The position numbers and the translations under genes are program-made. From an uncultured delta proteobacterium (GTDB lineage Bacteria > Desulfobacterota > Binatia > Binatales > Binataceae), in NCBI GenBank assembly GCA_963771325.1, contig CAVYTJ010000002.1:673074-737073 (forward strand): a DNA stretch of 64,000 nt. Reading direction: 5' to 3'. Position 1 is the first letter of the stretch; each line of letters begins with the position of its first letter. The notes below the pieces were generated by a model. The model worked only from the letters and a program-made list of their open reading frames with translations. It did not search any database and was not told where the DNA came from. Positions 1,221-49,897 of this stretch are shown here, piece by piece.

Positions 1221-1241
1221 TATACGTGTACTATACGTATA
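1221..1241. promoter_or_regulatory. inverted repeat tatacgt-N7-acgtata overlapping the antitoxin start; candidate autorepression operator of the TA pair
   Basis: Perfect 7-bp arms tatacgtgtactatacgtata lie immediately 5' of, and overlapping, ATG 1241. Type II TA operons are typically autoregulated at such inverted repeats. Confidence 0.45.
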
Positions 1242-1483
1242 TGGCTCCAAAGGCGCGAAGAAAGCTGACCATAACCGTCGAGGACGCCGTCTACCGCGGA
1301 CTGCGCAAGATCGTCGGCCCGCGCAACATCAGCCGCTTCCTGAACGACCTTGCGCGGCCCCATGTTGTGCGCGAGCGGCTCGACGAGGGCTATCGCGCGA
1401 TGGCCGGAGACGAAACTCGTGAGGCCGAAGCCGCCGAGTGGAGCGAGGAGTTGGTGGGAGACGTCGCGGATGAGCCGCGATGA
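1241..1483 (+). CDS. type II antitoxin (RHH/MazE-like small DNA-binding protein)
   Basis: [42 protein letters not shown]... is a basic N-terminal beta-strand plus helix (RHH-like) followed by an acidic tail. It overlaps the downstream MazF-family toxin gene by 14 nt. The ORF track start (GTG 1226) was moved to ATG 1241. Confidence 0.6.
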
Positions 1484-1817
1484 GCATAGCGCCCCGCGGC
1501 GTGGCGAGGTTTGGTGGATAGCCTTCGATCGCACGACGGGCGGCGAAATCAGGAAGACGCGCCCGGCGGTCGTGGTCAGCAATGACAGCGCCAACCGCTA
1601 TCTCAACCGCGTCCAGGTCGTTCCGCTCACCAGCAACGTGAAACGTCTCTATCCGGCCGAGGCGTACGTAAGGGTCAATGGGGTGCGCAACAAGGCGATG
1701 GCCGATCAGATAACCACCGCCAGCAAGCAGCGCCTGCGCGAAAAGGCCGGCACGATCGATCCCGCCGACCTGGCGGGCGTGGAACGCGCGCTCAAGACCC
1801 AACTCGGCCTGAACTGA
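1470..1817 (+). CDS. mazF: MazF/PemK-family endoribonuclease toxin
   Basis: [56 protein letters not shown]... has the classic PemK/MazF signature (GEVWW, RPAVVVS, VVPLTS). Confidence 0.85.
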
Positions 1818-6100: not shown

Positions 6101-6506
6101 GCACGACGTAGCCGTCGTAGCGATGCGCAGCGTCGATCATCAGCTTCAACGCCGGATCGATCACGCGACGAGCGTCTTCGGGATCAAGGTCCTCCATGAG
6201 CTCGGTCGAGCCCTTGATATCGGCGAACAGCGCGGTGACGGTCTTGCGTTCGCCTTCGATCTCCGCAGCCGGTAAGCCTGCCGCGATCACGCTAATCGAG
6301 GCGGGGGCCTTGCCTGGGGCGGACTGAGCGGCCGGTGTAGGAGTGCCGGCGGCTCCTTGCAGGGGTGCGGCGCACTCTCCGCAAAATCGCGCCGCAGGCG
6401 AGTTGTCAAATCCGCACCGTGAGCAGCGCCGCCTGAACGGAGCAGCGCACTGCTCGCAGAACTTGAGCCCTTCCGGATTTTCCGCCCCGCAAGCTGAACA
6501 GTGCAT
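3138..6506 (-). CDS. double zinc ribbon / class III adenylate-guanylate cyclase (CHD) / STAND AAA_16 ATPase / TPR protein (paralogue 1 of 3)
   Basis: N-terminus has two CxxC...CxxC ribbons (MHCSACGAENPEGLKFCEQCAAPF..CSRCGF..CGECAAPL). CHD motifs TALFADIKGST and VVQSTGDGIFALFG. Walker A GEAGLGKSRL and Walker B VVFEDLHWID. Long TPR-like C-terminus ending YGWFSEGFDTADLKDAKALLE. Confidence 0.9.
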   Translation of the reverse strand: MHCSACGAENPEGLKFCEQCAAPFRRRCSRCGFDNSPAARFCGECAAPLQGAAGTPTPAAQSAPGKAPASISVIAAGLPAAEIEGERKTVTALFADIKGSTELMEDLDPEDARRVIDPALKLMIDAAHRYDGYVVQSTGDGIFALFGAPVAHEDHPQRALLAGLRMQQEIKKLAGYLRAEGRAPIQIRIGLNTGEVVVRPIQTGEQHVEYTPIGHTANLASRMQTLAEPGTVVASEATFRLCDGYFFFRALGPSRIKGVNEPVNVYEVTGLGSLRTRLQRSAGRGLSKFVGREREMAAMRHALELVKKGHGQVVAAMGEAGLGKSRLLYEFKMTSQSGCLTLETFSVSHGKASAYLPVIELLNNYFEIEPNDDARKRREKMAGKVMMLDRALEDSLPYLFALLGVEETAGALAQMDGQVRQRRTLEAIKRILLRESLNRPLIVVFEDLHWIDNETQALLDLLVDAIANARVLLLVNYRPQYRHNWSNKSHYAQLRLDPLGRESAGEMLTALLGDDVALQPLRGLIIDKTEGNPFYMEETVQVLFDEGALVRNGTLKLTKALDELRIPPTVQAILASRIDRLPAGEKELLQTLAVMGKEFPLGLVRRVTGKPDDELERMLGDLQLGEFIYEQPALPDVEYSFKHALTHEVAYGSVLNERRKPLHERTAQAIEALFADQLDDHLPDLARHYSRSGNAGKAIHYLRLAGEQAERRSAHEEAASLFNSALEMLAREPEGQERMRREVELRLALVGSLVANKGYAAPEVEESARRALELSGALGDPVLHFPALMFAWAFHQVRRDLGRADQTSMELIEIAERARDSGMIANANFASGAVSLFSGKFRAARARLEQAAAIHDPSPLKGMPQDPRVASLSFLSVALWLLGYPAAALEMSGEALGRARDLGHPMSLAFALSYGAMLKLCRRDPEAAHQLADEARRVGMEHGFRYWSALGSTYRGIAQAALGRTDEGIAETLAGIESYRATGSALGAAAVVVGLASSYLKAGLADQARSAAEQALNVIEQTGARMSAAELCRLRGEALLTRGAPFEAQAQTCFEQAIAIAREQEARSWELRAVMSLARLLARLGRRDEARAMLAEIYGWFSEGFDTADLKDAKALLEELSD

Positions 6507-6579: not shown

Positions 6580-7296
6580 CTATGGCCTTACTGTCTCACC
6601 CCGGTGCTTTCGATACATCTTGTCTCGCCACGCGAATATCGGGGCGAACGCTGAATTCGAGGTCACCGACGCGGTATACATCGGACGCATCGATGCGGGA
6701 AAAACGAAGAGCTCATCAGCAGGAGGGTTCACCAGCAGAAACATGCTCGCGGTGGTGAGATCGGCCCGGGTGAAAGCATCGCCGACTAAATACTCACGTC
6801 CATCGAGAGCATGTTTGAGTACCGTCAAAATCCGCTCGACCGTGACTTTGGCATGCTCCTCGGCATACTGGGTGTGTTGGTACTTCTGCGCAAAGTATTG
6901 TCCGCCTTGTTGCAATTCCGGCGCGCTCGATCGCAGAAAATGCCCAATGATGAGCATCCGCGCCTGAGGGCCCAGGACCCCGTCCATCAGCTCCTCCCAC
7001 ATCATCACCTGCGCCCGATCTTTCTCGGACTCCGGCATGAGCCGCGGTTGCGGGTGATGCTGCTCAAGCCAATTCAGGATCGCGGTCGAGTCGGGAATCA
7101 CCGTGCCATCAACGAGCAACACCGGGACCTGGGCCTGCCCGGTCAGTTTCTTTACTGCTTCTTCGTCCACCCCGGGCTGGTAGTCCTGTTTTTCATATGG
7201 CACGCCTTTGAAGTTGAGCGCCCATCGAACGCGTTCCGCCCAGGGCGACGCATACATCTGAATCAACTTTGTAGTACTCAACTTTGTACTGCTCAT
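6580..7296 (-). CDS. glutathione S-transferase family protein
   Basis: Thioredoxin-like N-terminal domain with YASPWAERVRWAL...QVPVLLVDGTVIPDSTAILNWLEQ, followed by a helical C-terminal domain. Only 24 bp downstream of paralogue 2 on the same strand. Confidence 0.75.
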   Translation of the reverse strand: MSSTKLSTTKLIQMYASPWAERVRWALNFKGVPYEKQDYQPGVDEEAVKKLTGQAQVPVLLVDGTVIPDSTAILNWLEQHHPQPRLMPESEKDRAQVMMWEELMDGVLGPQARMLIIGHFLRSSAPELQQGGQYFAQKYQHTQYAEEHAKVTVERILTVLKHALDGREYLVGDAFTRADLTTASMFLLVNPPADELFVFPASMRPMYTASVTSNSAFAPIFAWRDKMYRKHRGETVRP

Positions 7297-7320: not shown

Positions 7321-10300
7321 TTAGGACAATTGTTCGATAAGTACCTTCGCGTCAATCAAATCTTTCGTATCAAGACCTTCGCTGAACCATCCGTAGATCT
7401 GCGCGAGCATCTGCCGGGCTTGCTCCTTCTTGCCTTGCTGCTCCCACAACCGGCTCAAGCTCGTCACCGCTCTTAACTCGAACGACTTGGCTTCTTGTTG
7501 ACGCGCAATCTCGATGGATTTACGGAAGCATTCTTCCGCTTCCATTTGGATGGCAGGCTCCGCTTCGACGCCGGAACGCCGGAGGACGAGTTCCCCCTTC
7601 AATCGATGGAGTGCCGCCTCGTTGTAGCGCTGGCCCGTTTTTTCCACTATCGCGATCGCCTCTGCCACAGCAGCCAGTCCTTCCTCGAAGCGTCCCGCTG
7701 TTGCGTATGCCTCCGCCAGGAAACAAAGAAACCACGGTCGGAACAGGCTGGCCCCTGATGCTAACTGGGCGTCCAAACCCTCGCGGATCATCGCAATTCC
7801 TTCCTCTGTTTGTCCCTGCTGGGCAAGTGCGTATCCTCGATACATAGTTGCCTGCGCCAGAAAACTCCCAAATCCTTGCTCCCTGCAGAGCGCGATCGCC
7901 GCCTCCGCTTGTTGCTGGTACGCAGGCCATTCCTTGCGAAGTTGAAGGATTGGAAGTGTGTGCAGCACCGTAAGTGCCAGGCTATACGCGTGAGACTGGT
8001 TGTGAGCCAGGGCGAATGTCTCCCCCATCCTCTTTGAAGACTGTTCTGGATGTCCGAGAAGCTCCAGGATCCACGCTGTCCTGCCGAGGCAAAACACTCC
8101 GGGATCCAGCCCATAGACAAATGTATGAACGTGATGTTTCTGAGGGTCGTACAAGCTGATCGCCCGTTCGAAGTGCTGCAAGGCAGGGATCAGCTTCCCG
8201 AAAAGGAACAGCGAATTTCCCTGCGCCAGATGAGCTTCCACCAGAAGACCAGAGTCTTGCACGCTCTCTGCCAGGCTCACGAGCTGCTGTGCTAGCTCAA
8301 AAGCCGACTGCAACTCTCCCCGTATGAGATGAAAGGATCGCAGACCAAACAACATTGGAAAGAGCCTTGCTTCCTCGCCTGATTGTCGGCCCAACTGGAG
8401 CGCTCGCTCGTAGACTGCCCCTACCTCTGGTGCCCCGTTCCCCTTCGTCGCTATCAGAACCGGACCAAGGATCGTCTGCAGGACCAACTCCCGCTGATCA
8501 CGTTGCGGGCTATTCGGCAAGGTCTTCAACAATTCCAATGCAGTAGTGAGGTATTTGATCGCTTCCGTGTTTGCGGATCGTTCGATAGCTTGTTGCGCGG
8601 CAAGTTGCAGATATTCCAGTGCCTTCAGGCTGCTTCCGCTGCAACTGTAGTGATGAGCCAGCTCTCCGTAGTGGTCTTCTAACCGAGAATTAAAGAGAGC
8701 TTCAATCTGACCTGCCGTGCGTTCGTGCAATTCCTTGCGCCGTTCTCCGAGTAACGAACCGTATGCCACCTCTTGGGTGAGCGCATGTTTGAAGGTGTAC
8801 GCAGATTCAGGAAAGGCAGGCTGCTCATAGATGAATTCGCTAAGTTGAAGGGCCGCAAGCATGCGTTCGAGTTCCTCGTCCGGCTTTCGTGTGACACCCC
8901 TTACCAGTCCGAGCGGGAATTCTTTGCCGATCACGGCGAGCGTCTGCAAGAACCCTTTCTCGTCCGCCGGCAGACGATCGATTCGCGAGGCCAGGATTCC
9001 CTTCACCGTGGGCGGGATGTGGATCTCGGATATTGAGCGGGTGACCTTGACCGCGCCATTGCGGACTAGCGCACCCTGATCGAACAGCGCCCGTATCATC
9101 TCCTCGATAAAAAATGGATTCCCCTCGGTTTTTTCGATGATCAGCCGCTTAAGCGGCCGCAGTTCCACCGCATCGCTCATCAATGCACTCAGCAACTCCT
9201 CGGCGCTCTCGCGCCCCAGCGGATCGAGCCGCAATTGAGTGTAGTACGTCTTACTGCCCCAGCTGTGTGAGTATTCGGGACGGTAATTCACGAGCATCAG
9301 GATCTTTGCGGTGCCGATCGATTCGACGAGCAGATTCAGCAGCGCCTGCGTCTGTTCATCGATCCAGTGCAGGTCCTCGAAGATCACGACCAGCAACTGG
9401 TTGAGGCTCTCGCGCAACAAAATCCGCTTGATGGCGTCCAGCGTGCGCCGACGCCGCAGGTCCGCGGCTATTTGCCCGAGCATCCCCCCTGGCTCCTCCA
9501 CCCCGAGCAGGGCGAAGACGTAGGGCAAGGTATCTTCCAGCGTCCGGTCGAGCATCAGTACCTTGCCGCCGATCTTTTCGCGCCGCCGCCGTTCGTTGTC
9601 TTCAGGGATCAGAGCGAAGTAGTCTTTGAGCAGCTCGATAACCGGCAGATAGGCCGAGGCCTTGCCGTGCGAGACCGAAAAAGCTTCGAGCACCAGGCAA
9701 CTGTCCTGCGCCACGGCTTTGAACTCGAAAAACAGCCTCGACTTGCCCAGCCCCGCCTCGCCCATCGCCGCTACCACCTGCCCGCGCGCGCCTTTAGTTC
9801 GCTCCAGCGCGCGCTTCATTTCCTCGATCTCGCGGTCCCGGCCGACGAATCGCGACAGCCCCCGCCGCGTCGACATCTGCAGCCGCGTGCGCAGCGGACC
9901 CAGCCCTACCAGCTCATAAACATTGACCAGCTCGCTCACGCCCTTGACCCGGGTTGGCCCCAACGTCTTGAACTCGAAGTATCCTTCGACCAGTTTCTGC
10001 GTATGCTCGCTCACCGCGATCGCCCCGGTCGGCGCGAGCGCCTGCATTCGCGCGGCCAGACTGGTCGAATGCCCGATCGGAGTGTACTCGGTGCGATGCT
10101 CGCCGGTCTGAACCGAGCGCACCACCATCTCGCCGGTGTTCAGCCCCACGCGAATCTCGATCGGCGCGCGCCCCTCCTCGCGCAGCTTGCTTGCGTACCG
10201 CTTGATGTCCTCCTGCATCTTGAGCGACGCGAGCAGCGCCCGCTGCGGATGGTCTTCGTGCGCGACCGGCGCTCCGAACAGCGCGAAGATGCCATCCCCG

Positions 10301-10746
10301 GTCGATTGCGCCACATAGCCCTCGTAGCGATGCACCGCGTCCATCATCAGCTTGAGCGCGGGATCGACCAGCCGGCGCGCCTCCTCCGGGTCGAGGTCCT
10401 CGATCAACTCCATCGAACCTTTGATATCGGCGAACAGGGCGGTGACCGTCTTGCGTTCGCCGTCGATCGCCATCGACGTTTCTGGCAGCTCCGCCGTGAC
10501 GCGAATTTCGGGAGCGGGTGCTGTTACCGGCGGCGCCTTGGGTGAAACAGCTTGAGCATTGCCAGCCAGCGCGCCCCCGCATTCGCCGCAGAAGTCCTCG
10601 CCGGGATCGTTCGAAGCACTGCATTGTGGGCACCGGCGCGCAAGCGAAGAACCGCATTTCGCGCAGAATTTGCGCCCCTCCCGATTTTCTGCTCCGCACT
10701 TCGCGCAGCGCATTTTTCCATTTCCCGTCTTGTCAGCGCGGTGCAC
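7321..10746 (-). CDS. double zinc ribbon / class III cyclase / STAND ATPase / TPR protein (paralogue 2 of 3)
   Basis: Same architecture as 3138-6506: CAKCGAEN..CAKCGS, TALFADIKGSMELIEDLDPEEARRLVDPALKLMMDAVHRYEGYVAQSTGDGIFALFG, GEAGLGKSRL, FEDLHWID. C-terminus ends YGWFSEGLDTKDLIDAKVLIEQLS. Confidence 0.9.
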   Translation of the reverse strand: MHRADKTGNGKMRCAKCGAENREGRKFCAKCGSSLARRCPQCSASNDPGEDFCGECGGALAGNAQAVSPKAPPVTAPAPEIRVTAELPETSMAIDGERKTVTALFADIKGSMELIEDLDPEEARRLVDPALKLMMDAVHRYEGYVAQSTGDGIFALFGAPVAHEDHPQRALLASLKMQEDIKRYASKLREEGRAPIEIRVGLNTGEMVVRSVQTGEHRTEYTPIGHSTSLAARMQALAPTGAIAVSEHTQKLVEGYFEFKTLGPTRVKGVSELVNVYELVGLGPLRTRLQMSTRRGLSRFVGRDREIEEMKRALERTKGARGQVVAAMGEAGLGKSRLFFEFKAVAQDSCLVLEAFSVSHGKASAYLPVIELLKDYFALIPEDNERRRREKIGGKVLMLDRTLEDTLPYVFALLGVEEPGGMLGQIAADLRRRRTLDAIKRILLRESLNQLLVVIFEDLHWIDEQTQALLNLLVESIGTAKILMLVNYRPEYSHSWGSKTYYTQLRLDPLGRESAEELLSALMSDAVELRPLKRLIIEKTEGNPFFIEEMIRALFDQGALVRNGAVKVTRSISEIHIPPTVKGILASRIDRLPADEKGFLQTLAVIGKEFPLGLVRGVTRKPDEELERMLAALQLSEFIYEQPAFPESAYTFKHALTQEVAYGSLLGERRKELHERTAGQIEALFNSRLEDHYGELAHHYSCSGSSLKALEYLQLAAQQAIERSANTEAIKYLTTALELLKTLPNSPQRDQRELVLQTILGPVLIATKGNGAPEVGAVYERALQLGRQSGEEARLFPMLFGLRSFHLIRGELQSAFELAQQLVSLAESVQDSGLLVEAHLAQGNSLFLFGKLIPALQHFERAISLYDPQKHHVHTFVYGLDPGVFCLGRTAWILELLGHPEQSSKRMGETFALAHNQSHAYSLALTVLHTLPILQLRKEWPAYQQQAEAAIALCREQGFGSFLAQATMYRGYALAQQGQTEEGIAMIREGLDAQLASGASLFRPWFLCFLAEAYATAGRFEEGLAAVAEAIAIVEKTGQRYNEAALHRLKGELVLRRSGVEAEPAIQMEAEECFRKSIEIARQQEAKSFELRAVTSLSRLWEQQGKKEQARQMLAQIYGWFSEGLDTKDLIDAKVLIEQLS

Positions 10747-11693: not shown

Positions 11694-13428
11694 ATGGCGG
11701 CAGAACATGCAGTCCGCTTCGGTCCCTATCGGCTCGACGCCTCCGAGGAGCAGGTCTGGCGGGGCCAACAGCTGGTGAAGCTCACGCCCAAGAGCTTCTC
11801 CGTTCTGCGCTACCTCGCGGAACGTCCAAAGCGCCTAGTCACCAAGGAGGAACTGTTCAGGGCACTGTGGCCGAATACGGCGGTTAGCGATGCGGCATTG
11901 ACAAGATGCATTCGCGAGATTCGGGAGGCGCTCACCGACGATGCGCGCTCGCCCCATTACATCGAGACCGCGCACCGGCGTGGGTTTCGCTTCGTTGGGC
12001 CCCCGGCCGAGGTGCGCCAGCCGATCCCGCGAACGAAGACAAAGTATGCGAAGAGTGGAGGCGTTAACATCGCCTATCAGGTCGTCGGCGAGGGCCCGGT
12101 CGACCTGGTGATGGTGCCCGGGTGGACCTCGAACGTGGAGGGCTGGTGGGAGCTACCCGCCTCGGCGGCCTTCTATGAACGGCTGGCGACCTTCTGCCGC
12201 CTTATCATTTTCGACAAGCGGGGAACCGGCATGTCGGACCCCTTTCCCCTCGATCAACCGCCCACGCTCGAGCAGCGGATGGACGACGTGCGAGCGGTCA
12301 TGGACGCAGCGGGCTTCGAACGGGCGGTATTGTTCGGATATTCCGAGGGTGGCCCGATGTCCCTCCTATTTGCCGCCACCTACCCGGAGCGGACGGTCGC
12401 GCTCGTTCTGCACGGGACGTTCGCCAAGCAGGAATGGCATGACACATTTGCGGCGAGGCTCGCCGAAACGCCCGAACAACTCGCGGCGCTGGTCGAGGAG
12501 CGATGGTCCGAGGGCTGGCCCGGCCTCGATGTATGGGCGCCGACCTTCGCGGACAACGAAGAGAACCGACAGGCGTTCGCCCGCTTCATGCGGCAAGCGG
12601 CGAGCCCCGCGACCGCCGCGGCGATCCTACGGATGTCGTGGGAGATCGACGTGCGGCCCATTTTGCCCGCGATCCGCGTGCCGACCTTGATTCTCCACCG
12701 CCGCGAAGAACGAGCGTTTGGCGTGGCGCATGCGCGATATCTCGCCGATCACATTCCTGAGGCGAAGTATGTCGAGATGCCCGGCGTGGATCACCTCCTG
12801 TACGCTGGCGACCACGAGGCGATAGCGGAGACGGTCGAGGAGTTCCTGACCGGTGCCCGACATGCCCGCAAGGCCGGCCTTCTCGCCACGGTGTTGCTCA
12901 TCGACGTCGTGGATTCGGCGGGACGAGCCTCCGAGCCCGGCGACCGCGCCTGGCGAAGTCTCCTCGGGCGCTACCAGGAGTTGGTTCGAAGGGAAGTGAG
13001 CCGTTTTCGTGGACGCGAGGCGGCAGGTGATCGCTGCGCGGCGACGTTCGACGGCCCGATCCGAGCGCTTCGCTGTGCGCTGAGGCTGCGTGAGGCCCTT
13101 CGGGAGTCAAGACTTCCAAATCCGCATGAGTGTACACACCGGAGAATGCGAATTCCAAAACGATCGGCTGAGCGGCACTACGGTTCGCATCGCGGCCCAG
13201 ATTCTCGCCAAAGCCGCGCCGGGTGAGATCTGGGTATCGGGTACCACGAAGGATTTGGTACCCGGCTCGAGAATCGAGTTTGAGGATCGAGGACTACACG
13301 TCTTAGGCGATATCCCACGACAATGGCCTTTGTTCATCGTGAAATCGACGGATGACGCGGCAACCCGTCGATCACGGTCTCTTCCTCCTTCTCGCTCACA
13401 GCTCTACCGGACCGCTCGGCGCGGATGA
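11694..13428 (+). pseudogene. winged-helix (OmpR/CadC-type) + alpha/beta-hydrolase + class III cyclase-domain protein, interrupted by a +1 frameshift near 13096-13105 (possibly an assembly artefact)
   Basis: Residues 1-105 VRFGPYRLD...LTPKSFSVLRYLAERPKRLVTKEELFRALWPN...RRGFRFVG form a trans_reg_C domain. This is followed by an alpha/beta-hydrolase fold (GYSEGG nucleophile elbow). CHD start LLIDVVDSAG...GDRCAATFDG is in frame 0, and the CHD continues as IRMSVHTGECEF...GTTVRIAAQ in frame +1 (ORF 13090-13428). The shift site is at a CCC/GGG run. Confidence 0.75.
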
Positions 13429-23847: not shown

Positions 23848-23920
23848 GGCCGCTCACGAGCGGCCCCTACATTGGAGCGGCGGATTTTTTTGTAGGGGCC
23901 GTTCGTGAACGGCCCTCTAC
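23848..23920. repeat. two REP-like palindromes (ggccgctcacgagcggcccCTAC at 23848-23870 and GTAGgggccgttcgtgaacggccctCTAC at 23892-23920) between convergent genes
   Basis: Imperfect palindromes with a terminal CTAC (the second also has a 5' GTAG), separated by a T7 run. A third member is at 30868-30892. Confidence 0.55.
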
Positions 23921-30892: not shown

Positions 30893-31274
30893 CGGATGGA
30901 TCCGGCGTGATCTACGGTTTCGATGGGCTCTCTGCTTGCGGGCGACGAATTGAAACGTCGACATTGTCCACTCTGGAGCGGGCAGGAACACACGATCTTC
31001 GCCAGTCAGTTTCAACCTCGTAGTTTCTTCAAATCTGCGTAATTGCCTCGCCCGGATCGTGTCCGCTGGTCTGCGCGAAATCTGAAACTTCCGCAGAACC
31101 CCAACGTACCAGCCCGTAGCCGTCACAAAACAGCGCAGCCAGCTGGCGAGGTCCAGCGGCGTCGCGATTTGTAGAGGCGTTGATCGGCGAGAATGGGGCA
31201 TGGGAAGATGAATCGAAATAACTCCGGAGAGTTGTTTGCCGACGATCGGCGTCACAGCCGAGCGCTCCTGATCA

Positions 31275-32126
31275 GTGCCCGCTGCTAGACGGTCAAGGCT
31301 CACCAGCGAATCGAACGGGAAGTCCCAGGTGGTAGTCATCGAGCGTAGATTGGCCCAGCTCTTTTCTTACAAGCTGGTCTTCTTTGCTAACGCAGACTCT
31401 CTGGATCGAATCGTCAAAAGACTGAAGCCGACCGAGATGGCGCGCCTCCTTCACACAAACAAGGGGCTTGATGGTTCGCGCTTTGTAGTTAAACGCGAGC
31501 GGACCTTCACCGTGTGCAATGACCTGCGCCAGCCGCTCGAGACGCTGTGGAAGAGCTTTGCTCCTTACAACCGTGCCGAAATCCGCAAGGCCGAGAGATT
31601 GGTCGAGCGCGTGCGAATCACGCGCAACGAACCAGCGGGCCTCGACGACTTTATTGCCGTGTACAATGATTTCGCGCGGCTTAAGGACGGCGTGTGGCCG
31701 ATTTCGGCGCGCCTTCTTAACCGTTACGATGGGTTCGCCGACCGACTTGTCCTGTACCTCGACGAACAACCGATGGTGGTGAATCTGGTGCTGCGCGATG
31801 CCGAAACCGGGCGCGTCAGAGGATTATACAATGCCAGCCGGCGCCTGCACGCTGACGAGCCGAAAAAGGCTCGGGTCCTGGGCAACTTGAACCGTTTGCT
31901 ACATTGGCACAACATGCGGCTCTACAAAAAAGAGGGCTTCGATACCTACGATTGGGGAGGGATCAGCGAGGATCGAAGCGATGGCAGGGCCAAATTCAAG
32001 ATGTCTTTCGGCGGAAATATCGCGGAGGAGTACACTTATCTCTGCGCAGGCTGGCCACGACTCGGACTCCTGGCGCAACGCCTGTTTGAGTTGGCGTCGG
32101 CACGCGGCCGCCGGGCGCGCCGCTGA
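31275..32126 (+). CDS. FemAB-like / Acetyltransf_6 (GNAT-fold) domain protein, possibly N-terminally truncated
   Basis: ...LYLDEQPMVVNLVLRD...LYNASRR...RLLHWHNMRLYKKEGFDTYDWGGI...KFKMSFGG resembles FemAB-family acyl/aminoacyl transferases. The ORF opens immediately after a stop and the upstream 400 bp has lower GC and no coding frame. Confidence 0.45.
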   Translation: MPAARRSRLTSESNGKSQVVVIERRLAQLFSYKLVFFANADSLDRIVKRLKPTEMARLLHTNKGLDGSRFVVKRERTFTVCNDLRQPLETLWKSFAPYNRAEIRKAERLVERVRITRNEPAGLDDFIAVYNDFARLKDGVWPISARLLNRYDGFADRLVLYLDEQPMVVNLVLRDAETGRVRGLYNASRRLHADEPKKARVLGNLNRLLHWHNMRLYKKEGFDTYDWGGISEDRSDGRAKFKMSFGGNIAEEYTYLCAGWPRLGLLAQRLFELASARGRRARR

Positions 32127-32253
32127 AGTCTTCGAGCGGCTGTCCGTCCGACAAGTCGCGAATTACAGTGAGAGGGATGGAACCTTCAGATGATCGGTTC
32201 ACCACCCGATTAGAATTTTTGGATAACCCGAAGCGGGACCTCATTTTCTCCAA

Positions 32254-32646
32254 CTACTCAGGCACCCGCGGCTGTTCCTCAGCCGTGTAGCACACGAACG
32301 TCCTGGTTTGCGGAAGGCCCGCATCATGCGCGGGGTAGCAGGCAAATCGCGCGTTCAGATCGCCCTCGTAGGAAGGCGCTTTCTGCTTGCCGGAAAATTT
32401 CCCCACAAAAGGCGCGACGTCCCGCTCAACGGTCACAGCGTTATTGGGCTGACCCGAACTCTGCTGCCGTTTTGAGCTCCCGCCGCCGCCCAAAAGCTGC
32501 CCCAGACCTCCAAGCCCCTGAGCAAAGGATTGACCAAGCCACGCGACCAGGAACAGCACGACGCCAATCGTTGCGACCGCGCCGGATTTCCTTAACTCTA
32601 TTGTTTGCCTTGCTCGCGATTTCCGAATCCTCCTCGCCCGTGCCAT
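32254..32646 (-). CDS. hypothetical small membrane protein (basic N-terminus, one TM helix, Gly-rich linker)
   Basis: MARARRIRKSRARQTIELRKSGAVATIGVVLFLVAWLGQSF...GGGGSS... No recognised family. Confidence 0.35.
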   Translation of the reverse strand: MARARRIRKSRARQTIELRKSGAVATIGVVLFLVAWLGQSFAQGLGGLGQLLGGGGSSKRQQSSGQPNNAVTVERDVAPFVGKFSGKQKAPSYEGDLNARFACYPAHDAGLPQTRTFVCYTAEEQPRVPE

Positions 32647-32775
32647 TAAGACGAAACTGACGGGGCGACGGTTACATTCATTCGGATAAAATTCATAGCT
32701 TCACGATTCCGTGAGAGGCCCACGCCGCTTCTGAGCCCCTCTCCCTGTGAAGGTGTCGATAAATGGGAGAAATCA

Positions 32776-32890
32776 ATCCATCGCTTCGCGGAGATCCTTC
32801 GCTGACGCTCAGGATGACTGCAAGGAGCTTTTGTTGTCATCCTGAACGAAGGCTGCCGGAATGAAGGATCAACGCGGAGCGATTGTTTTT
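32776..32890. repeat. copy B of the inverted-repeat extragenic element (arm X 32776-32818, 11-nt loop, arm Y 32830-32886); forms a long hairpin
   Basis: See 2978-3127. Here the arms are head-to-head (..caggatgac tgcaaggagct tttgttgtcatcctg..). Confidence 0.75.
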
Positions 32891-32902
32891 GTGCTTTTAG
32901 CG

Positions 32903-34091
32903 TTACGGCTCGATGCGAGCGACGCGGCGCTTGCCGACCTCGAGAATACGATGCTGGCCGGGGACGAAATGGAAATTGATGTCGCTGACAGTCTGGCGGT
33001 CGACGCGCACCGCGCCCTGCCCCACCAGCCGGCGCGCCTCGTTGGTCGAGGCGGCGAAGCCGAGCTGCTTTAGCAACTCGCAGATCCATAGCTCCTCGGC
33101 GATGCGATACACCGGCACGTCCTGCGGCACTTCGCGGCGCTGAAACTTGCTCTCGAAATACTCCCGCGCGTCGCTCGCGGCGTCGCTATCGTAATACTCG
33201 GCGACGATCTCGGTCGCGAGCCGCTTCTTGGATTCCATCGGATGCGATTTGCCGGAGCGGATCGCGGCGAGATCGGCGGGCGCGACGTCGGTCAGGAGCT
33301 CGAAATAACGCGGCATCATCCGATCCGGAATCGACATCAGCTTGCCGAACATGTCACGCGGCGCGTCGGTCAGCCCGACCGCGTTGCCGTAGGACTTCGA
33401 CATCTTGCGCACGCCGTCGAGTCCCTCCAGCAGCGGCATGGTCATGACGACCTGCGGCGGCTGGTTAAATGCGCGCTGCAGCTCGCGCGCGACCAGCATG
33501 TTGAATTTCTGATCGGTGCCGCCGAGTTCGACGTCGGCGCGCAGCGCGACCGAATCATAGCCCTGGACCAGCGGGATAGAGCAGCTCGTGCAGGAACAGC
33601 GGCTGCTGCTCGGCGAGGCGCTTCTCAAAGTCGTCGCGCTCGAGCATCCGCGCCACGCTCAGCTTGGCGGCGATCTCGATCAGGCCGCGAACGTCGAGCT
33701 TGTCCATCCATTCGCTGTTGAAGCGGACTTCGGTCAGCGCGGGATCGAGGATTTTCGAGACCTGGCGCTGGTAGGTTTCGGCGTTGGCGACGATCTGCTC
33801 GCGCGTGAGCGGCTTGCGCGTCTCGGAGCGCCCGGTCGGATCGCCGATCATCGCGGTGAAGTCGCCGACCAGGAAGATCACGGTATGGCCGCGGCGCTGG
33901 AAGTCGCGGAGCTTCTTGAGCGCTACGGAATGGCCCAGGTGCAAATCGGGCGCGGTCGGATCCATCCCGAGCTTGACCCGTAGCGGGCGCCCTTCGCGAA
34001 GCTTGGCCGCCAGCTCATCGCCCGAGATGACTTCGGAGGCGTTGCGCCCCAGCTCCTCGGCCTGCTCTTTCGCGTCGCTCTCTTCCAACAC
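32903..34091 (-). pseudogene. tyrS: tyrosyl-tRNA synthetase interrupted by a single-base frameshift at a GGG/CCC run near 33573-33575 (probable assembly indel)
   Basis: The N-terminal ORF (33555-34091) has HIGH motif [10 protein letters not shown] and ends ...[11 protein letters not shown]. The second ORF (32903-33628) continues ...[31 protein letters not shown] and an S4 domain. Removing one C from tatcccgctgg restores [13 protein letters not shown]. Confidence 0.85.
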
Positions 34092-34098
34092 CTTGCGC

Positions 34099-35412
34099 TC
34101 AGTGCATCAATTGCGTCAGGCCGGTGGGATTCTGGAACTTCGAGATGTTGTCATACTGCGGCGAGTAGCGGTCGGCCCACAAATCCTCGCCATTGGCGTC
34201 GGCGGTGAAGATGTGAGTGGCGTGCTGCTCCTGGAGGTTCCAGTACTGCTCGATGATTCCGCCGCCGAAGTACTGCGGCCCCCACTCCGGATGGAGCCGG
34301 TCCTCGCGCGTGCGCAGCCCGATATTCACCACCTTCCACAGTGCCATGCTCGAGTCGTACAGGTCCTCGTGCACGTTGGCGAAATAGGCCTGGGCGGTGT
34401 ACATGATGCGCTTGCCGTAGCAGTAGCCCGAGCGCATCGACTCGATCCGGCGCACGTCGGTCACCCACACCGGCACCACTTCCCATTTGCCCCACGACGG
34501 CTTCGCCCAGCCAAGCGGCAGATCGTAGTTGTCGGGAAACTTGCCCATCGCGGTGGTCATGTCGACCAGCGCGAGAATATTCTGTTCACGCAGGAACTGG
34601 CCCTCGAACACTGAAGCGCCGCCGTTCCATCCCACTCGCTGATCGTCGTGCGTTGCGTCGCTGTCGAACAGCGGCGCGCATCGCGCCGAGGTCGAAAGCC
34701 GCATCGCCTGGCGCAGCGCCGGGATGAAAACGTAGTCGTCGGGCAGCCGGGTCACGTCCTGCCAGTACAGTGTCAGATCGGCCGAGTACTTCGCTTCCTC
34801 GGGCACCTCGACCATCAGCCATTCGCCGTACCACGCTCCGGTCGAGCCGGGCTCGGTGTGCGAGATGCCGGGGAACCAGTTGTAGGCGAGCTGGCGATAA
34901 TTGTAATCGACGCGAGTGCAGGCCTTGCTGCCGAACTTGTCCATCGTGCAAAACGACGACGGGGTCCCCGAATCGGGCATGCCGACGTAGAGATGGCCGC
35001 CGGGACGAAAGGTGACGTCGGCCGCGATCTCGGTCCCCTTGTCGGGGCCCGACGGATGCGGAAACGGAACGCCGGAGACATAGTTTTCCAGCTTGTAGGC
35101 GCCGTTGGGCAACTTGAGAAAGCGGGTCTGCGCCGAGTACTTCTCCACCGCGTCCCAAAACGGCTTGGGCAGCGGATGGATCGCCGTCAGCCCCACGTCC
35201 ATTTCGACGTCAGGCGGCATCTTCCAATCGACGCTGCCGTCGAATAGCGCGATCATCCCGTCGGGCATGAAGGCCTTGTACTGCTGCCAGTTCTTCATGG
35301 TGATTTTGGTGCCGGGCGGGATGGTGTTCTCCACCGCCCCGGCCATCGCCACACTGAGAAAGCAGAGTGCGAGGCCGATGATTCCAGGCAACAGCTTCCG
35401 AATGCCGTTCAT
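34099..35412 (-). CDS. secreted hypothetical protein (signal peptide; DUF1329-like size and composition)
   Basis: Own ATG at 35412 with a GGAGGG RBS 8 nt upstream. [26 protein letters not shown]... signal peptide. The ORF track fuses it with ctaB only because no stop intervenes in that frame. Confidence 0.6.
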
Positions 35413-35465
35413 CTCGAGGTCCCTCCCTGTTCCAAATCGAGGAAACTCACGCTCCCGGTGTGCGA

Positions 35466-36378
35466 TTAAACACGGTCGAGCACGATTACCAGGAATACGA
35501 TCGGCAAATACAAGAGCGAAGCGAACATCACGCGGCGCGCCGCCGCGGCGGCATTCGGGTTGCGCGCGAGCCGCAGTCCCGAAGGTCAGCATCATCGCGC
35601 CCAGCGCGAGCGCGACCGCCATCGAGATCCACCCGGCGAAGCCCAGCAGCGTGGGCAGCGCGCCCGCCGCGATGAGCGCGATGCAATCGAGCAGGATCAG
35701 CTTGTCCACTGGATTAAGGCGCGGATTACCGCGTCCGCCCGCAAGCGGCAGCATGCTGATTCCGGCGCGCGCGTAGTCGCTCTGGTAAAGCCGCGCAATC
35801 GAGAGCGAATGGGGAAGCTGCCACAGGCACATGATGAGGAACAGGATGAAAGGTTCGACGCCGAGTCTTCCGCTGGCCGCGGCCCATCCGGCAACCGGCG
35901 GCAGCGCTCCGGGCACCGCGCCGACGGCATGGCAAAGCCACGAGACCCGCTTGAGCGGCGTATACGCGAACAGGTAGAGCAGCGCGATTGCGGCGGTCAC
36001 CGCGGCGGCCAGAAAATTCGCCGCCACCCACAGCCAGGCGCATCCGCCGACCGTCGTGACGAGGCCGAAGACCAGCGCCTCGGGCGGGCTCAGGCGTCCC
36101 TCGGGCAGCGGGCGATGCTGCGTTCGGATCATCAGGGCGTCGATGCGGCGCTCGAAATACTGGTTGAGCGCGAGCGTGCCGCCGGCGGCGAGCGCGGTGC
36201 CGAACAGCGTATTCAGCGCAAGCCACAGGTCGAAGCGCTCGGCGCTGCCGAGATAGAAGCCGACCAGCGTGGTCAGCAGAACCATCGCGAGCACGCGCGG
36301 TTTGGTCAGCTCGAGATAGGCCGCGGCGCGCTTGCGCGCGCCGCTCGCCGATGCGAGCGCAACGGCTTCGGCGCTCAT
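35466..36378 (-). pseudogene. ctaB: protoheme IX farnesyltransferase (heme O synthase) with a C-terminal frameshift near 35550-35590 (GC-rich tract; probable assembly indel)
   Basis: UbiA-family motifs YLELTKPRV, NQYFERRIDALMIRTQHRPLP. The conserved C-terminal helix ...RRVMFASLLYLPIVFLVIVLDRV* with TAA stop at 35466 is in the +1 frame relative to the upstream body. Confidence 0.8.
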
Positions 36379-40052: not shown

Positions 40053-40215
40053 CGAAATCCTGTGGCGGAAGAGGCCATCGGCGAGCCGTCGCGAGGTTTT
40101 CCATCGCAGGATGCGCGCTTGGGACCGAGGCCGGTCGATCGACGCACCATATCAACCCCGGCCAAACCTCGCCAGTGGGGGGCCAATGCCGGCCCGGCGA
40201 AAACCGACTAGGCGG

Positions 40216-43200
40216 CTAACTCAACTTCGATTCGAGCAGCGCCTTCGCGTCTTTCAGGTCGGCGATGTCGAAGCCCTCGGTGAACCAGCCGTAGATCTTG
40301 CCAAGCCTGGCGCGCGCTTCGTCGCGGCGGCCCTGCTGGTCGAGTAACCGAGCGAAACTGGTCGTCGCGCGCAACTCCCACATCCTTGCGCTTTGCATTC
40401 GAGCGATTTCTATCGCGCGCAGCAAAGAGCTTTCGGCCGCGACAAGGTTCCCTTGCGTCAGCCGCGCGACGCCCGCAATGCGGTGAAGTTCCGCCGTGAA
40501 TTGGCGCTCACCCGATTCTTCGGCCTGCCGGAGAGCATCGCTCACGACATCCAACGCCTCATCACAATGCCCGATCGAGCTCAAACCCGCCGCGAATTCT
40601 CCCAGGAACCATGGACCCCCAAGCACTGAACCGAGAGCTCGCCAGGCATCGAATCCCTGTTTGATGGTATCGACTCCCCGTGCCCCCTCTCCACGCTGGA
40701 CCGCGGCGCATCCCATCAATATCTGTGCAAACGCCAGGTAAAAAGCCAGCCCATGCTCGGCGGCCAGCGCCGTCGACGTTCGGCAGCGTTCGATAGCTGC
40801 ATCTGGTTCTCGTCGCAAAAGATGTAACTGTCCCGCGTATATCGTGGCCATGGCCAGCGCTCTTGGATGAGCCAGCACATGCGCCACCTGGACGCAGTCC
40901 AAGACGGTCCTAAGGGCCTGATCTGGATAACCCCGATAGTGTTGAGTCCAAGCCGCGTAAGCTCTTGAGATCATCGCTGGATCATCGACAAAGACCCGAG
41001 AAGGCGGCGTTCCTGGCTTGCACGCGTCGATCGCCAGCGCTAAGCGCTCGGAAGCGGTTTCGATTCGCCCACACCAGAATGCGGTGTCACCTGCGGCGAA
41101 ATTCGCATACGCAAGACGAGTGTCGTCCTTGGATTCACCCACTGATGTGAGAAGTCGCTCTGCCAATGCCTCGGCGTCACGAAGTTCCGCGCGTAGCAAG
41201 TGAAAGACCCACAATCCGGATAAGGCCTCGAAGAGCGCCGAGGTATCCCCGGCTAGCTGGCAAAGCTCAAGCGCCCGCGTGTAGTTCGCGCCAATCTCTG
41301 AAGCACCCTGACCTTTGACTGCCATCAGACTAGGCCCAATCAAAATTCGGAGTCGAATTTCCTGGACTCGATTGCCCTGATCGTCTGGCAGCTCCGATAT
41401 GAGCTCTAAAGCGGTCCCAAGCTGTGCGATGGCGCCGTTGTCGGCGCCCTTGGCAGCGGTCTGCTCTCCGGCTCGAGTGAGATATTCGATGGCCTTCTCG
41501 AGGTTTCCACCTCGGCGATACTGATGAGCGAGCTCCGCCAGGTGATCGTCAAGGCGGTCGGCATAAAGCGACTCGATCGCGGCTGCGGTCCGCTCGTGGA
41601 GCACCCGCCGCCGCTCGCTCAGGACTGAGTTGTAGGCGACTTCCAGTGTCAGCGAGTGCTTGAAGGTGTACTCGGCGTCGGGCAGTGCGGGCTGCTCATA
41701 GATGAACTCACCGAGCTGCAGATCGCTCAGCATCCGTTCGAGCTCGTCGGCGGATTTGTCGGTTACCTTTTTGATCAGTCCGAGCGGGAACTCCTTACCC
41801 ATCACGGCCAGGGTTTGTAAGAGGTCTTTTTCATCGGCCGGTAACCGATCAATACGCGAGGCGAGGATCACCTGCACGGTGGGCGGGATGTTCAGCTCGC
41901 TCAATGGCTTGGTGAGCTTGACCGCACCATTGCGGACCAGAACTCCTTCGTCGAGCAGTACCTGCACGGTCTCCTCCATAAAGAACGGATTGCCGTGGGT
42001 CTTCTCGATAATCAGGCGTTTGAGCGGTTTGAGCGAAGGATCATCGCCCAGAAGCGCACCCAGCAACTCTTCGGCACTCTCCTGCCCGAGCGGGTCGAGC
42101 CGGAGGCGGGCATAGTAGGTCTTGCTGCCCCAGCCGTGACGGTACTCGGGACGGTAATTGAGCAGCAGCAGCACCCGAGCGTTGCCGATCGCGTCGGCCA
42201 TGAGATCGAGTAAGGCTTGGGTTTCGGCGTCGATCCAGTGCAAGTCCTCGAAGATCACGACCAGCGGCTGGTTGAGGCTTTCACGCAACAGAATGCGCTT
42301 GATGGCTTCCAGCGTGCGGCGCCGACGCGCCTGTGCGTCCATCTGGGCCAGTGCGCCGACGGTCTCCTCGACTCCAAGGAGCGCGAAGAGGAACGGCAAT
42401 GCGTCCTCTAACATGCGATCGAGCGTGAGGACTTTGCCAGTGATCTTTTCCCGTCGCCTGCGTGCGTCGTCCTCGGCCTCGATCTCGAAGTAGTTGTTGA
42501 GCAGCTCAATAACGGGCAAATAGGGCGACGCCTTGCCGTGAGAGACGGAGAACGTTTCCAAAACAAGGCATCCACTCTGCGAGGTCGCCTTGAATTCGTA
42601 AAACAACCGTGACTTGCCCAGCCCGGCCTCGCCTATCGCGGCAACGATCTGCCCGTGGCCTTTCCGTACCAGTTCCAGTGCGCGCCGCATCTCCGCCACC
42701 TCTCGCTCGCGCCCGACGAACTTCGTGAGCCCACGCCCGGCCGCTCGCTGCAGCCGGGTTCTGAGCGGGCCGACTCCCGTCACCTCGTAAACGTCAACCG
42801 GCTCACTGACTCCCTTGACGCGAACCGGCCCCAATGCCTTGAACGCAAAGTAGCCCTGACATAAACGATGGGTCGCCTGACTGCTCACCACCGAGCCAGG
42901 GTCGGCCAGCGTTTGCATGCGCGAGGCGAGGTTCGCCGTATGCCCGATCGGCGTGTACTCGATCTGCTTCGCGCCGGTTTGGATCGGCCGCACCACCACC
43001 TCTCCGGTGTTGAGTCCGACCCGGATCTGGAGTGGGGCGCGGCCCTCGGCGCGCAGCCGGCTCGTCAGCCGTTTTATCTCCTGCTGCATCCGGAGCGCGG
43101 TCAACACCGCCCGCTGTGGATGGTCCTCGTGGGCGACGGGTGCGCCGAAGAGCGCAAAGATGCCATCACCGGTCGACTGCACGACGTAACCGTCATAGTG

Positions 43201-43629
43201 ATGGACCGCGTCAATCATTATCTTGAGCGCGGGGTCGATCACCCGACGAGCGTCCTCTGGATCGAGATCCTGTATCAGCTCGGTCGATCCCTTGATGTCA
43301 GCGAACAGTGCGGTGACCAGCTTGCGCTCGCCCTCCGGTACATCCTCGGCTTCTACAGAAGCGCTGACGCCGATCGTCGGACCCGATACGGCCGGCGCTG
43401 CGAACTGACCGGCTTTAGCGCCTTTAACCGCCTGGCCCAGGGCGGTACCGCATGCGTTGCAGAATCTCGCACCCGTCCGGTTGGATGCCCCACACGAAGG
43501 ACACCCCTGTGGCAGAGCGGTTCCGCATGCGTCGCAGAACCTGGCGCCATCGAAGTTCTCTGAGCCGCAGCTTGAGCAGTTCATCAACCTAGCCGTGACC
43601 TTGATGATGGAACTTTCTCGGTTTAGCAA
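40216..43629 (-). CDS. double zinc ribbon / class III cyclase / STAND ATPase / TPR protein (paralogue 3 of 3)
   Basis: CSSCGSENFDGARFCDACG..CPSCGASNRTGARFCNACG. The CHD is ~85% identical to paralogue 1 (TALFADIKGSTELIQDLDPEDARRVIDPALKIMIDAVHHYDGYVVQSTGDGIFALFG). GEAGLGKSRL, FEDLHWID. C-terminus YGWFTEGFDIADLKDAKALLESKLS. Confidence 0.9.
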   Translation of the reverse strand: MLNRESSIIKVTARLMNCSSCGSENFDGARFCDACGTALPQGCPSCGASNRTGARFCNACGTALGQAVKGAKAGQFAAPAVSGPTIGVSASVEAEDVPEGERKLVTALFADIKGSTELIQDLDPEDARRVIDPALKIMIDAVHHYDGYVVQSTGDGIFALFGAPVAHEDHPQRAVLTALRMQQEIKRLTSRLRAEGRAPLQIRVGLNTGEVVVRPIQTGAKQIEYTPIGHTANLASRMQTLADPGSVVSSQATHRLCQGYFAFKALGPVRVKGVSEPVDVYEVTGVGPLRTRLQRAAGRGLTKFVGREREVAEMRRALELVRKGHGQIVAAIGEAGLGKSRLFYEFKATSQSGCLVLETFSVSHGKASPYLPVIELLNNYFEIEAEDDARRRREKITGKVLTLDRMLEDALPFLFALLGVEETVGALAQMDAQARRRRTLEAIKRILLRESLNQPLVVIFEDLHWIDAETQALLDLMADAIGNARVLLLLNYRPEYRHGWGSKTYYARLRLDPLGQESAEELLGALLGDDPSLKPLKRLIIEKTHGNPFFMEETVQVLLDEGVLVRNGAVKLTKPLSELNIPPTVQVILASRIDRLPADEKDLLQTLAVMGKEFPLGLIKKVTDKSADELERMLSDLQLGEFIYEQPALPDAEYTFKHSLTLEVAYNSVLSERRRVLHERTAAAIESLYADRLDDHLAELAHQYRRGGNLEKAIEYLTRAGEQTAAKGADNGAIAQLGTALELISELPDDQGNRVQEIRLRILIGPSLMAVKGQGASEIGANYTRALELCQLAGDTSALFEALSGLWVFHLLRAELRDAEALAERLLTSVGESKDDTRLAYANFAAGDTAFWCGRIETASERLALAIDACKPGTPPSRVFVDDPAMISRAYAAWTQHYRGYPDQALRTVLDCVQVAHVLAHPRALAMATIYAGQLHLLRREPDAAIERCRTSTALAAEHGLAFYLAFAQILMGCAAVQRGEGARGVDTIKQGFDAWRALGSVLGGPWFLGEFAAGLSSIGHCDEALDVVSDALRQAEESGERQFTAELHRIAGVARLTQGNLVAAESSLLRAIEIARMQSARMWELRATTSFARLLDQQGRRDEARARLGKIYGWFTEGFDIADLKDAKALLESKLS

Positions 43630-43686
43630 ACTAAGTTTTTTACCACTTGATCAGTGTCATTAGCGCGTAAAAAGTTACTCGCGCGC

Positions 43687-43706
43687 AATCGGACCTTGGT
43701 CCGATT
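43687..43706. promoter_or_regulatory. perfect 9-2-9 palindrome AATCGGACC-TT-GGTCCGATT in the divergent promoter region between paralogue 3 and the fadD-like gene
   Basis: Read directly. A flanking agtaactcg motif recurs twice (43673, 43768). GntR/TetR-style operator geometry. Confidence 0.4.
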
Positions 43707-43817
43707 TTCGCCGATCGCTCCTGGCTCGCCGCGTGATGTCTGCTGACAGGTTTGGCGCGACGCCCTCCTTTGCGGTAGTAACTCGATCGCCAGTCGCATG
43801 GCGCGGAGGTTGAGCGG

Positions 43818-47234: not shown

Positions 47235-47313
47235 CTGCTCTTCCTCCTTGGTTGGATTGCTGGCGAATTTCGACCCGGCGAACCTTTCACCGATCGCGCG
47301 GCGCCCGAACCGG

Positions 47314-48856: not shown

Positions 48857-48879
48857 TAATTGAGAATGGTTCTCAATTA
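48857..48879. promoter_or_regulatory. perfect 10-3-10 palindrome taattgagaa-tgg-ttctcaatta in an AT-rich region upstream of the FTR1 permease gene; Fur-family (Irr/ICE-like TTTAGAA-N3-TTCTAAA) operator candidate. Followed by a 16-bp tandem repeat agtaaaacagtagaac x2.3 (48882-48920).
   Basis: Read directly. Each half-site matches the ICE half TTTAGAA at 6/7 positions. The gdatatcgct direct repeat at 48803-48828 is nearby. Confidence 0.45.
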
Positions 48880-48960
48880 CAAGTAAAACAGTAGAACAGT
48901 AAAACAGTAGAAAAGTAGAACAAATAAGACGATTTAAGGCGTCACCCAAGGAATCTCAAG

Positions 48961-49897
48961 TTGCCCACTGTCCTACCTTACTTTTTCTATTCCCTCGGCA
49001 TCCTGGTGCGCGAGGGCTCCGAAGCCTTGCTGGTTGTCGTTGCACTGCTTGCCGCAGTGCGCGAGGCCGGGCAGGAGCGACGCGCGCGCGATATCTACGC
49101 CGGCGCGTCTGCTCGCGCTCGGACTCAGCCTCGTGCTGGCGTGGGCGGTCAACCATCTCATTGCCGACGACACCAGCGATACGCTCGAGGGCGTCTTCCA
49201 ATTGCTCGCCGCGGCGACGCTCTTTTACGTGAGCTCCTGGCTGACCGCGCGCGGCCAGAGCGACCGCTGGCGCACCTTCCTGCACGACAAGGTCGAAGCG
49301 TCGCGTGACATCGCGGGGCCCTCAATCGCGCTTGGACTGACGGCGTTTTTGGCCGTGATGCGCGAGGGCGCCGAGACTATCGTCTTCTTCCAGGCGCTGC
49401 TCGGCGGCGCGACTGAAACCGCCGAGCGTCATGCGGTGATGGCGGGATTGCTGGCGGGCGCGCTGGCACTGGGCGTGATTTTCCTGGTCCTGCGCAAGGC
49501 GGCGTTTCGCATCCCGCTCGGCTCGTTCTTCACCGCGACCTCAGTGCTGCTCTACGGACTGGCGGTGATCTTCGTCGGCCAGGGAATTTCGAGCTTCCAG
49601 GAATCGGGCGTGATGCGCGCGACTTTCGTCGATCATGTGCCGACCATCCAGGCGCTGGGACTCTTTCCAACCGTGCAAACGCTCGCGGCGCAGGCCGCGA
49701 TGCTCGGGCTGGCGGCGCTCGCGTTGTTCGCCCCGGCTGGCCCGCGCAAGCGCAAGCACGACGATACGCCGGCGGCAGCCGGCGGCAAGGTCAGCCCGCG
49801 CATCGCCAGCCGCTCCCGCGTTAGTTCGCGAATTTCCGGTCGCGCTGTCGCGCCTGTTGCCCGCGCATCGCGAAAGCTGTTACCCAGTGGTTCCTGA
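48961..49897 (+). pseudogene. FTR1/EfeU-family high-affinity iron permease, frameshifted near 49100-49125 (may be an assembly artefact)
   Basis: The first REGxE motif (LVREGSEALLVVVALL) is in frame 1 (48961-49308). The second (AVMREGAETIVFFQALL) and the remaining TM helices are in frame 2 (49034-49897). Confidence 0.7.

Follow-up and report, generated by a model that had tools for sequence, protein, structure and literature searches.

Five one-base frameshifts in a 64-kb stretch of a Binataceae contig are very probably long-read consensus errors

A 64-kb stretch of a metagenome contig of the Binataceae (the window) contains four genes with broken reading frames: tyrS, ctaB, the gene of an FTR1-family iron permease and a hydrolase-cyclase gene. 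A sequence-only reading of the window had reported one frameshift in each of them. All four were confirmed, and the count rose to five, as the FTR1 gene was found to carry a second lesion. The five indels are very likely consensus errors of a long-read metagenome-assembled genome (MAG) contig, most probably of the Nanopore, Flye plus Medaka type, and not mutations of the organism; a mixed-strain route is the likely mechanism at three of the sites.

Gene census against close relatives

The named matches of the tyrosyl-tRNA synthetase (TyrRS) belonged to Candidatus Binataceae. Three ENA contigs, L001 (ERZ25039470 contig_66242, 772 kb), L002 (ERZ25039506 contig_27975) and L003 (ERZ25039482 contig_53540), matched the window with 98.4–99.1% identity over 7–21 kb. 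L004 (ERZ25039474 contig_21498) matched it with 99.3% identity over 20.9 kb, and JGI contigs matched its left third with 98.0–98.8% identity. The nearest GTDB species representatives were MFD09286.bin.2.82 and MFD00731.bin.2.203 (the latter, contig_63516, is L007), with 89–93% nucleotide identity to the window. L005 and L007 were regarded as neighbouring species because they were only 89–93% identical to the window.

Forty-eight genes called on L001, L004 and L085 were mapped to the window by tblastn. Full-length matches in one frame, with 97.5–100% identity, were obtained for 44 of them, and no in-frame stop codon was found in any of the 48 mapped genes. The four exceptions were tyrS, ctaB, FTR1 and the hydrolase-cyclase gene. 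Their five lesions were all 1-nt indels, and each one-base fix restored the exact protein length of the relatives, with 98–99.7% identity. The compared sequence, about 58 kb, contained these five frame-breaking one-base indels; the remaining indels relative to the relatives were intergenic or multiples of 3.

All the sites were in frame in L001–L004 (about 99% nucleotide identity) and in L085–L100 (98–99%). The in-frame assemblies included ten JGI contigs for FTR1 and six for the cyclase gene. The same held for contigs with MEGAHIT or SPAdes names (k141_, NODE_) from a relative with 95% identity. Metagenomes were scanned at the tyrS site, and 11 of 11 matches had the in-frame length. These matches came from other species only (68–93% identity), so this test is weak; its matches hint that the extra base of tyrS is not a circulating allele.

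Additional frame switches had appeared in a codon-usage frame plot at about 1450, 21840, 47300 and 56432. They were rejected as lesions, as the gene calls of the relatives identified them as normal gene boundaries: a PemK toxin–antitoxin pair, a 4-bp MlaE/ABC overlap, separate AsnC and 3HCDH genes, and Tgt/QueA. At 1214–1817 (plus strand), beside nadA, a small ORF precedes the gene of a PemK/MazF-type toxin, which has 115 aa in relatives, and the two are probably a toxin–antitoxin pair.

Other length differences were also observed. Near the start of the GST gene (7263–7277), the window carries a duplication of 15 bp, TCAACTTTGTA(G)TAC, and at 6341 the JGI contigs differ by a 15- or 24-bp GCGGACGG-type repeat; both are in-frame tandem-repeat length polymorphisms between strains. 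Intergenic 1-nt length differences were found at short runs at 40177–40182, 23864–23867, 47272–47274, 10887 and 30913–30928. The run lengths compared with those of relatives were G6 vs G5, G4 vs G3, C3 vs C2 and A5 vs A6, and no gene was affected. These differences may be real variation or further consensus errors.

Five one-base lesions in four genes

The tyrS gene (tyrosine–tRNA ligase) occupies 32903–34091 on the minus strand. Its 1189 nt correspond to 395 codons, a stop codon and one extra base. The gene is read as two ORFs, an N-terminal one of 178 aa (33555–34091, minus strand) and a C-terminal one (32903–33628) that lies one frame over. The Pfam profile tRNA-synt_1b (PF00579) matched the first piece at profile positions 3–139 and the second at positions 138–291, and the S4 and SYY_C-terminal domains (PF01479, PF22421) matched after it. 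The tRNA-synt_1b pieces abut exactly and are followed by the S4 and SYY C-terminal domains, indicating that the two ORFs are halves of one gene. In tblastn, an intact orthologue switched frame at 33573/33574. The alignment to relatives placed one base in excess at 33572–33575, which reads CCCG within TATCCCGCTGG (CCC at 33573–33575 and G at 33572, minus strand). The ORFs, the Pfam halves and the tblastn frame switch thus bore out the claim that a 1-nt insertion splits tyrS.

It had also been claimed that deletion of one base would give the canonical sequence, and this proved correct. Removing one base from TATCCCGCTGG gave the canonical junction sequence and a TyrRS of 395 aa, 394 of which were identical to the intact proteins P0001 and P0002. 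HLGH and KMSKS motifs were visible in the repaired translation. It therefore has the features of a class I TyrRS, namely a tRNA-synt_1b catalytic domain, HIGH-type and KMSKS motifs, and a C-terminal S4-like domain. Intact proteins matching the repaired TyrRS were encoded on three other same-species contigs with about 99% nucleotide identity. Compared with the relatives, tyrS had 6–8 synonymous codon differences and one non-synonymous difference (one such codon against each of P0001 and P0002). TyrRS is normally a single-copy essential enzyme, and no second tyrS was found within the 64-kb window.

In the relatives, the tyrS site is a proline codon, CCC or CCG, followed by CTG or TTG, and it is in frame. 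L001 has CCC-CTG, L002 has CCG-TTG, and L003 and L005–L008 have CCG-CTG; the window has CCC-G-CTG. A sequence of the type CCC-N is a classic +1 slippage-prone site for tRNA-Pro. The gene could accordingly be functional as it stands if the P-site tRNA-Pro re-paired from CCC to CCG by programmed +1 frameshifting, and the canonical TyrRS sequence is exactly what a shift at CCC-G would yield. Such a site would mean that recoding had recently arisen in the gene of an essential aminoacyl-tRNA synthetase. The extra base was absent from all 18 orthologous DNA sequences, three of them about 99% identical, so conservation of the site is lacking. CCC is followed by GCU and by neither an in-frame stop nor an obviously rare codon, and no Shine–Dalgarno-like (GGAGG-like) stimulator was found in the sequence upstream of the site. 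The efficiency of spontaneous +1 slippage is much too low to sustain an essential enzyme, and the four other one-base lesions of the window are at non-slippery sequences. The tyrS site shares the CCC-G quadruplet with programmed +1 frameshifting (prfB type; tRNA-Pro at CCC-N). Unlike the prfB type, it is unconserved, has no stimulatory elements and has four other lesions nearby, and we do not count it as a member of that class. We consider recoding at tyrS extremely improbable.

The ctaB gene (heme O synthase, UbiA family; Pfam UbiA) is at 35466–36378 on the minus strand, with 913 nt, that is, 303 codons, a stop codon and one extra base. A split had been claimed at about 35550–35590, and the extra base was indeed found there, at 35576/35577 (minus strand), where the window reads GGGACTG and the relatives read GGG-CTG or GGG-ATG. 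More precisely, the relatives have GGG-CTG or GGG-CTA (Leu), L002 has GGG-ATG (Met), and the window has GGG-A-CTG. After removal of A35577, a CtaB of 303 aa was obtained, identical to the L002 CtaB at 300 of 303 positions. The extra base puts the last 35 or so codons out of frame, and reading continues into the next gene. An artificial read-through ORF of 759 aa (34099–36378, minus strand) is the outcome, which joins the N-terminal part of CtaB to a DUF1329 protein and has Pfam UbiA and DUF1329 on one product. The true DUF1329 gene is at 34099–35412, downstream of ctaB. In relatives, CtaB (303 or 307 aa) and the DUF1329 protein (437 aa) are encoded by separate genes; the fusion (P0368) was recorded on one contig only. 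At 35734, a 12-bp duplication in L001 accounts for the lengths of 307 vs 303 aa and is an in-frame tandem-repeat length polymorphism.

The FTR1-family iron permease gene, as read, is at 48961–49897 on the plus strand (Pfam FTR1); the corrected gene would be at 48961–49824 and encode 287 aa. The claimed split at about 49100–49125 was verified, and alignment to relatives placed one base in excess at 49107–49109. At this site L004 has GCG-TTG, ten JGI contigs have GCT-CTG, and the window has GCG-T-CTG. A fifth event, absent from the earlier reading, is present at 49807/49808, where one G is missing after 49807. The window has ATCGCC-AGCC, vs ATCGCCGAGCC in 11 of 11 relatives. This deletion replaces the last 6 aa and appends a 24-aa tail. 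With both corrections the product is 287 aa long, as in relatives, and 283 of 287 residues are identical to L004.

We considered the 49807 deletion as a real variant common to P0361, a 313-aa FTR1 from JGI. This was rejected, since the tail of P0361 is different. A product of a 1.34-Mb ENA contig, P0121, has a different aberrant FTR1 C-terminal tail that starts from the same ...KVSPRIA position (window about 49800–49830). Because P0121 has its own aberrant tail there, the GC-rich ATCGCCGAGCCGC stretch at the 3' end of FTR1 may be recurrently error-prone. The region upstream of FTR1 contains, at 48857–48879 (plus strand), a perfect inverted repeat of 10 nt whose arms are separated by 3 nt, TAATTGAGAA-TGG-TTCTCAATTA. 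About five copies of an 8-nt unit, AGTAGAAC/AGTAAAAC, follow directly at 48881–48922 (plus strand). The whole array (48857–48922) may be a Fur-like operator or another regulatory array for the iron permease.

The fourth gene encodes a winged-helix (wHTH), alpha/beta-hydrolase and class III cyclase-like protein and is located at 11694–13428 on the plus strand. It has 1735 nt, which equals 577 codons, a stop codon and one extra base. Pfam Trans_reg_C and Abhydrolase_1 were found in it, and its closest relatives have 577 aa. The extra base is a T at 13114/13115 (plus strand): the window reads GACTTCC, whereas 10 of 10 relatives read GAC-TCC, with one T instead of two. The split reported for this gene was therefore real, and its position was not: it had been given as 13096–13105, about 10 nt upstream of the actual site. 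The corrected product has 577 aa, 568 of which are identical to L085.

Three paralogous genes for proteins of about 1,100 aa are located at 3138–6506, 7321–10746 and 40216–43629, all on the minus strand. Their products have double-zinc-ribbon, guanylate/adenylate cyclase, AAA_16 and TPR regions. The third paralogue (about 40232–43747) is present in same-species contigs and absent from the neighbouring species L005 and L007.

Assembly origin and strain alleles

The broken products were each recorded on a single 987,051-bp contig (NCBI, ENA): the 178-aa TyrRS piece is P0362, the 759-aa fusion is P0368, and a 254-aa FTR1 piece is P0176. Intact TyrRS with at least 99% identity was found on dozens of contigs. 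The same-species contigs bear Flye-style names. The nearest GTDB genomes belong to the Microflora Danica MAGs (MFD*.bin), for which Nanopore reads alone were assembled with Flye --meta and polished with a single round of Medaka (PMC12313526). Judged by its size and its relatives, the contig of the window was most probably made like the MFD MAGs, as a long-read assembly of the Nanopore, Flye plus Medaka type.

Similar lesions were observed in other long-read assemblies of the lineage. The tyrS of L007 (about 10090–10115) has its own 1-nt deletion near codons 35–37, in the REGRPLRV region; its tblastn match covers 1184 nt, a length not divisible by 3. Long ENA contigs encode two truncated TyrRS products, P0366 and P0367. 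In L003, a low-coverage long-read contig, several genes are split and 12 private indels were counted in 7.1 kb. Positions 7111–10478 of L003 match window positions 31491–34687 in the opposite orientation with 82–90% identity and hundreds of gaps; this end of the 10.5-kb contig looks like a fold-back or inverted-duplication chimera. For metaFlye, about 4 indels per 100 kb have been reported on a mock community, and frameshift errors were commoner in Nanopore soil data (PMC13087279). The five events in the 64 kb of the window are of the same order as the mock-community rate.

The frameshifts could also be genuine. Recent pseudogenisation would then have affected tyrS, ctaB, FTR1 and the cyclase gene, and function would be supplied by other copies or by community members. 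The deposited sequence does contain the lesions, and a strain-specific real mutation would likewise be found on one contig only. However, at a rate of five lesions per 64 kb, several hundred genes would be broken in the whole genome, and the window contains no nonsense mutations or larger deletions, with 44 of 48 genes perfectly intact. The substitutions in tyrS are nearly all synonymous, signs of relaxed selection were not seen, and the window offers no second copy of this normally single-copy gene. In sister long-read assemblies these genes are broken as well, at other positions; in contigs from short-read assemblers and from JGI they are not. The comparison with reductive genome evolution leads to the same point. 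Mycobacterium leprae is an example of pseudogene accumulation in this process, and the window resembles it in having several broken genes, housekeeping genes included, in a short stretch. Unlike in reductive evolution, nonsense mutations, deletions and relaxed selection were not found in the window, and the neighbouring genes are intact. We regard genuine pseudogenisation as quite improbable.

Consensus errors explain the lesions better. The 44 intact genes, the one-base repairs to exact length, the restriction to a single contig and the Nanopore-only neighbours support this reading. It is in line with the earlier suggestion that most or all of the frameshifts were artefacts, which the private occurrence, the one-base fixes, the intact relatives and the lack of nonsense mutations uphold. 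Resting on sequence comparison, it is very well supported and short of proof. The living cells most likely carry intact tyrS, ctaB, FTR1 and cyclase genes.

At three sites, the window equals the union of two strain alleles: CCC/CCG became CCCG in tyrS, A/C became AC in ctaB, and GT/TC became GTC at FTR1 site 1. These three errors would have arisen from reads of two co-assembled strains that differed by one or two adjacent substitutions, at the third position of a codon and/or the first position of a leucine codon. The consensus or polishing step would have kept both alleles side by side, which would add one base. The change from T to TT in the cyclase gene and the lost G in the FTR1 tail would be ordinary residual long-read indel noise. 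No polymorphism was found near the cyclase site or FTR1 site 2 among the sampled relatives. With two of five sites lacking polymorphism, retention of both alleles cannot account for everything.

Polymorphic columns made up only 2.5–4.4% of the alignment among relatives. For three of five random sites to fall on such columns, P was about 8e-4 before the match of the inserted base was considered and about 0.02 at ± one column, for a pattern that was noticed post hoc. No convincing common motif (e.g., a methylation site) was shared by the five positions. Three of the insertions precede a CTG leucine codon, owing to the polymorphism at the first position of leucine codons and at the preceding third position.

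The window also alternates over short ranges between strain types. In 23761–43825, 127 diagnostic sites were L001-like and 122 were L002-like, with 42 private differences. This allele mosaic could reflect a consensus collapsed over mixed strains or natural recombination in the soil population. Collapsed-haplotype and mixed-strain consensus errors have been described (Strainberry, PMC8302730; Strainy), and the window is likewise a mosaic of two haplotypes. No description of a tandem-allele insertion signature was found in the literature searched; the signature is deduced here from assemblies. Whether tandem alleles are a systematic, recognisable class of Nanopore consensus error in strain-mixed soil MAGs, correctable without references, is in our judgement an even call.

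Alternatively, strain polymorphism may have played no part, and the lesions may be plain indel noise of long reads or slippage at homopolymers. A basecaller or polisher would then have miscounted short runs or made errors in GC-rich sequence, and the lesions would still be artefacts that arose by another route. The tyrS lesion fits a change from CC to CCC before G, and the cyclase lesion a change from T to TT. The FTR1 and ctaB sites have 70–83% GC. The indels of L003 are often off polymorphic sites, as are two of the five events of the window. Against this, none of 103 homopolymer runs of at least 5 nt, 20 of them at least 6 nt, carries a frame-breaking indel, and their host genes are intact. 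The insertions in ctaB (A between GGG and C) and at FTR1 site 1 lengthen no run. Three of the five events coincide exactly with polymorphic columns, where the inserted base is the alternative allele. Plain noise as the cause of all five events is thus rather unlikely, though it may hold for some sites and deserves more weight than the readings in which the lesions are real, and the mixed-strain route is preferred for the three sites.

The sequence-only reading had placed three of its four sites at homopolymer or very GC-rich tracts. This is only loosely true. The runs are 1–3 nt long, the local GC fraction is 0.50–0.83, and two of the insertions extend no run. Homopolymer slippage as the main cause was not sustained, given that 0 of 103 runs of at least 5 nt were affected and three sites were strain-polymorphic.

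Consequences for gene calls

Indels that fragment genes in long-read assemblies and MAGs are likewise single-base, repairable by one base, private to an assembly and present at a few per 100 kb. They have been measured with IDEEL-type approaches by Sereika et al. 2022 (PMC9262707), in the nanoMDBG benchmark (PMC13087279), and with Kastor (PMC12007338) and Homopolish (PMC8011154). Homopolymers are stressed in that literature, whereas the runs here are at most 3 nt long and three of the five events are on strain-polymorphic positions.

False splits or fusions affect about one in twelve genes in the window. Their products, among them the 759-aa CtaB–DUF1329 fusion, are already in public protein collections. 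The warning that the frameshifts matter for every pseudogene call in the window was justified, as false splits and fusions are present. Claims of pseudogenes, domain fusions or metabolic gaps from this MAG should first be checked against relatives. If polymorphisms seed one-base insertions genome-wide, they would offer a simple way to locate and repair errors in strain-rich long-read metagenomes.

Biologically the finding is not novel, and it serves as a useful quality flag for the contig and for protein databases. Its biological weight is small, since tyrS, ctaB, FTR1 and the cyclase gene almost certainly function in the organism.
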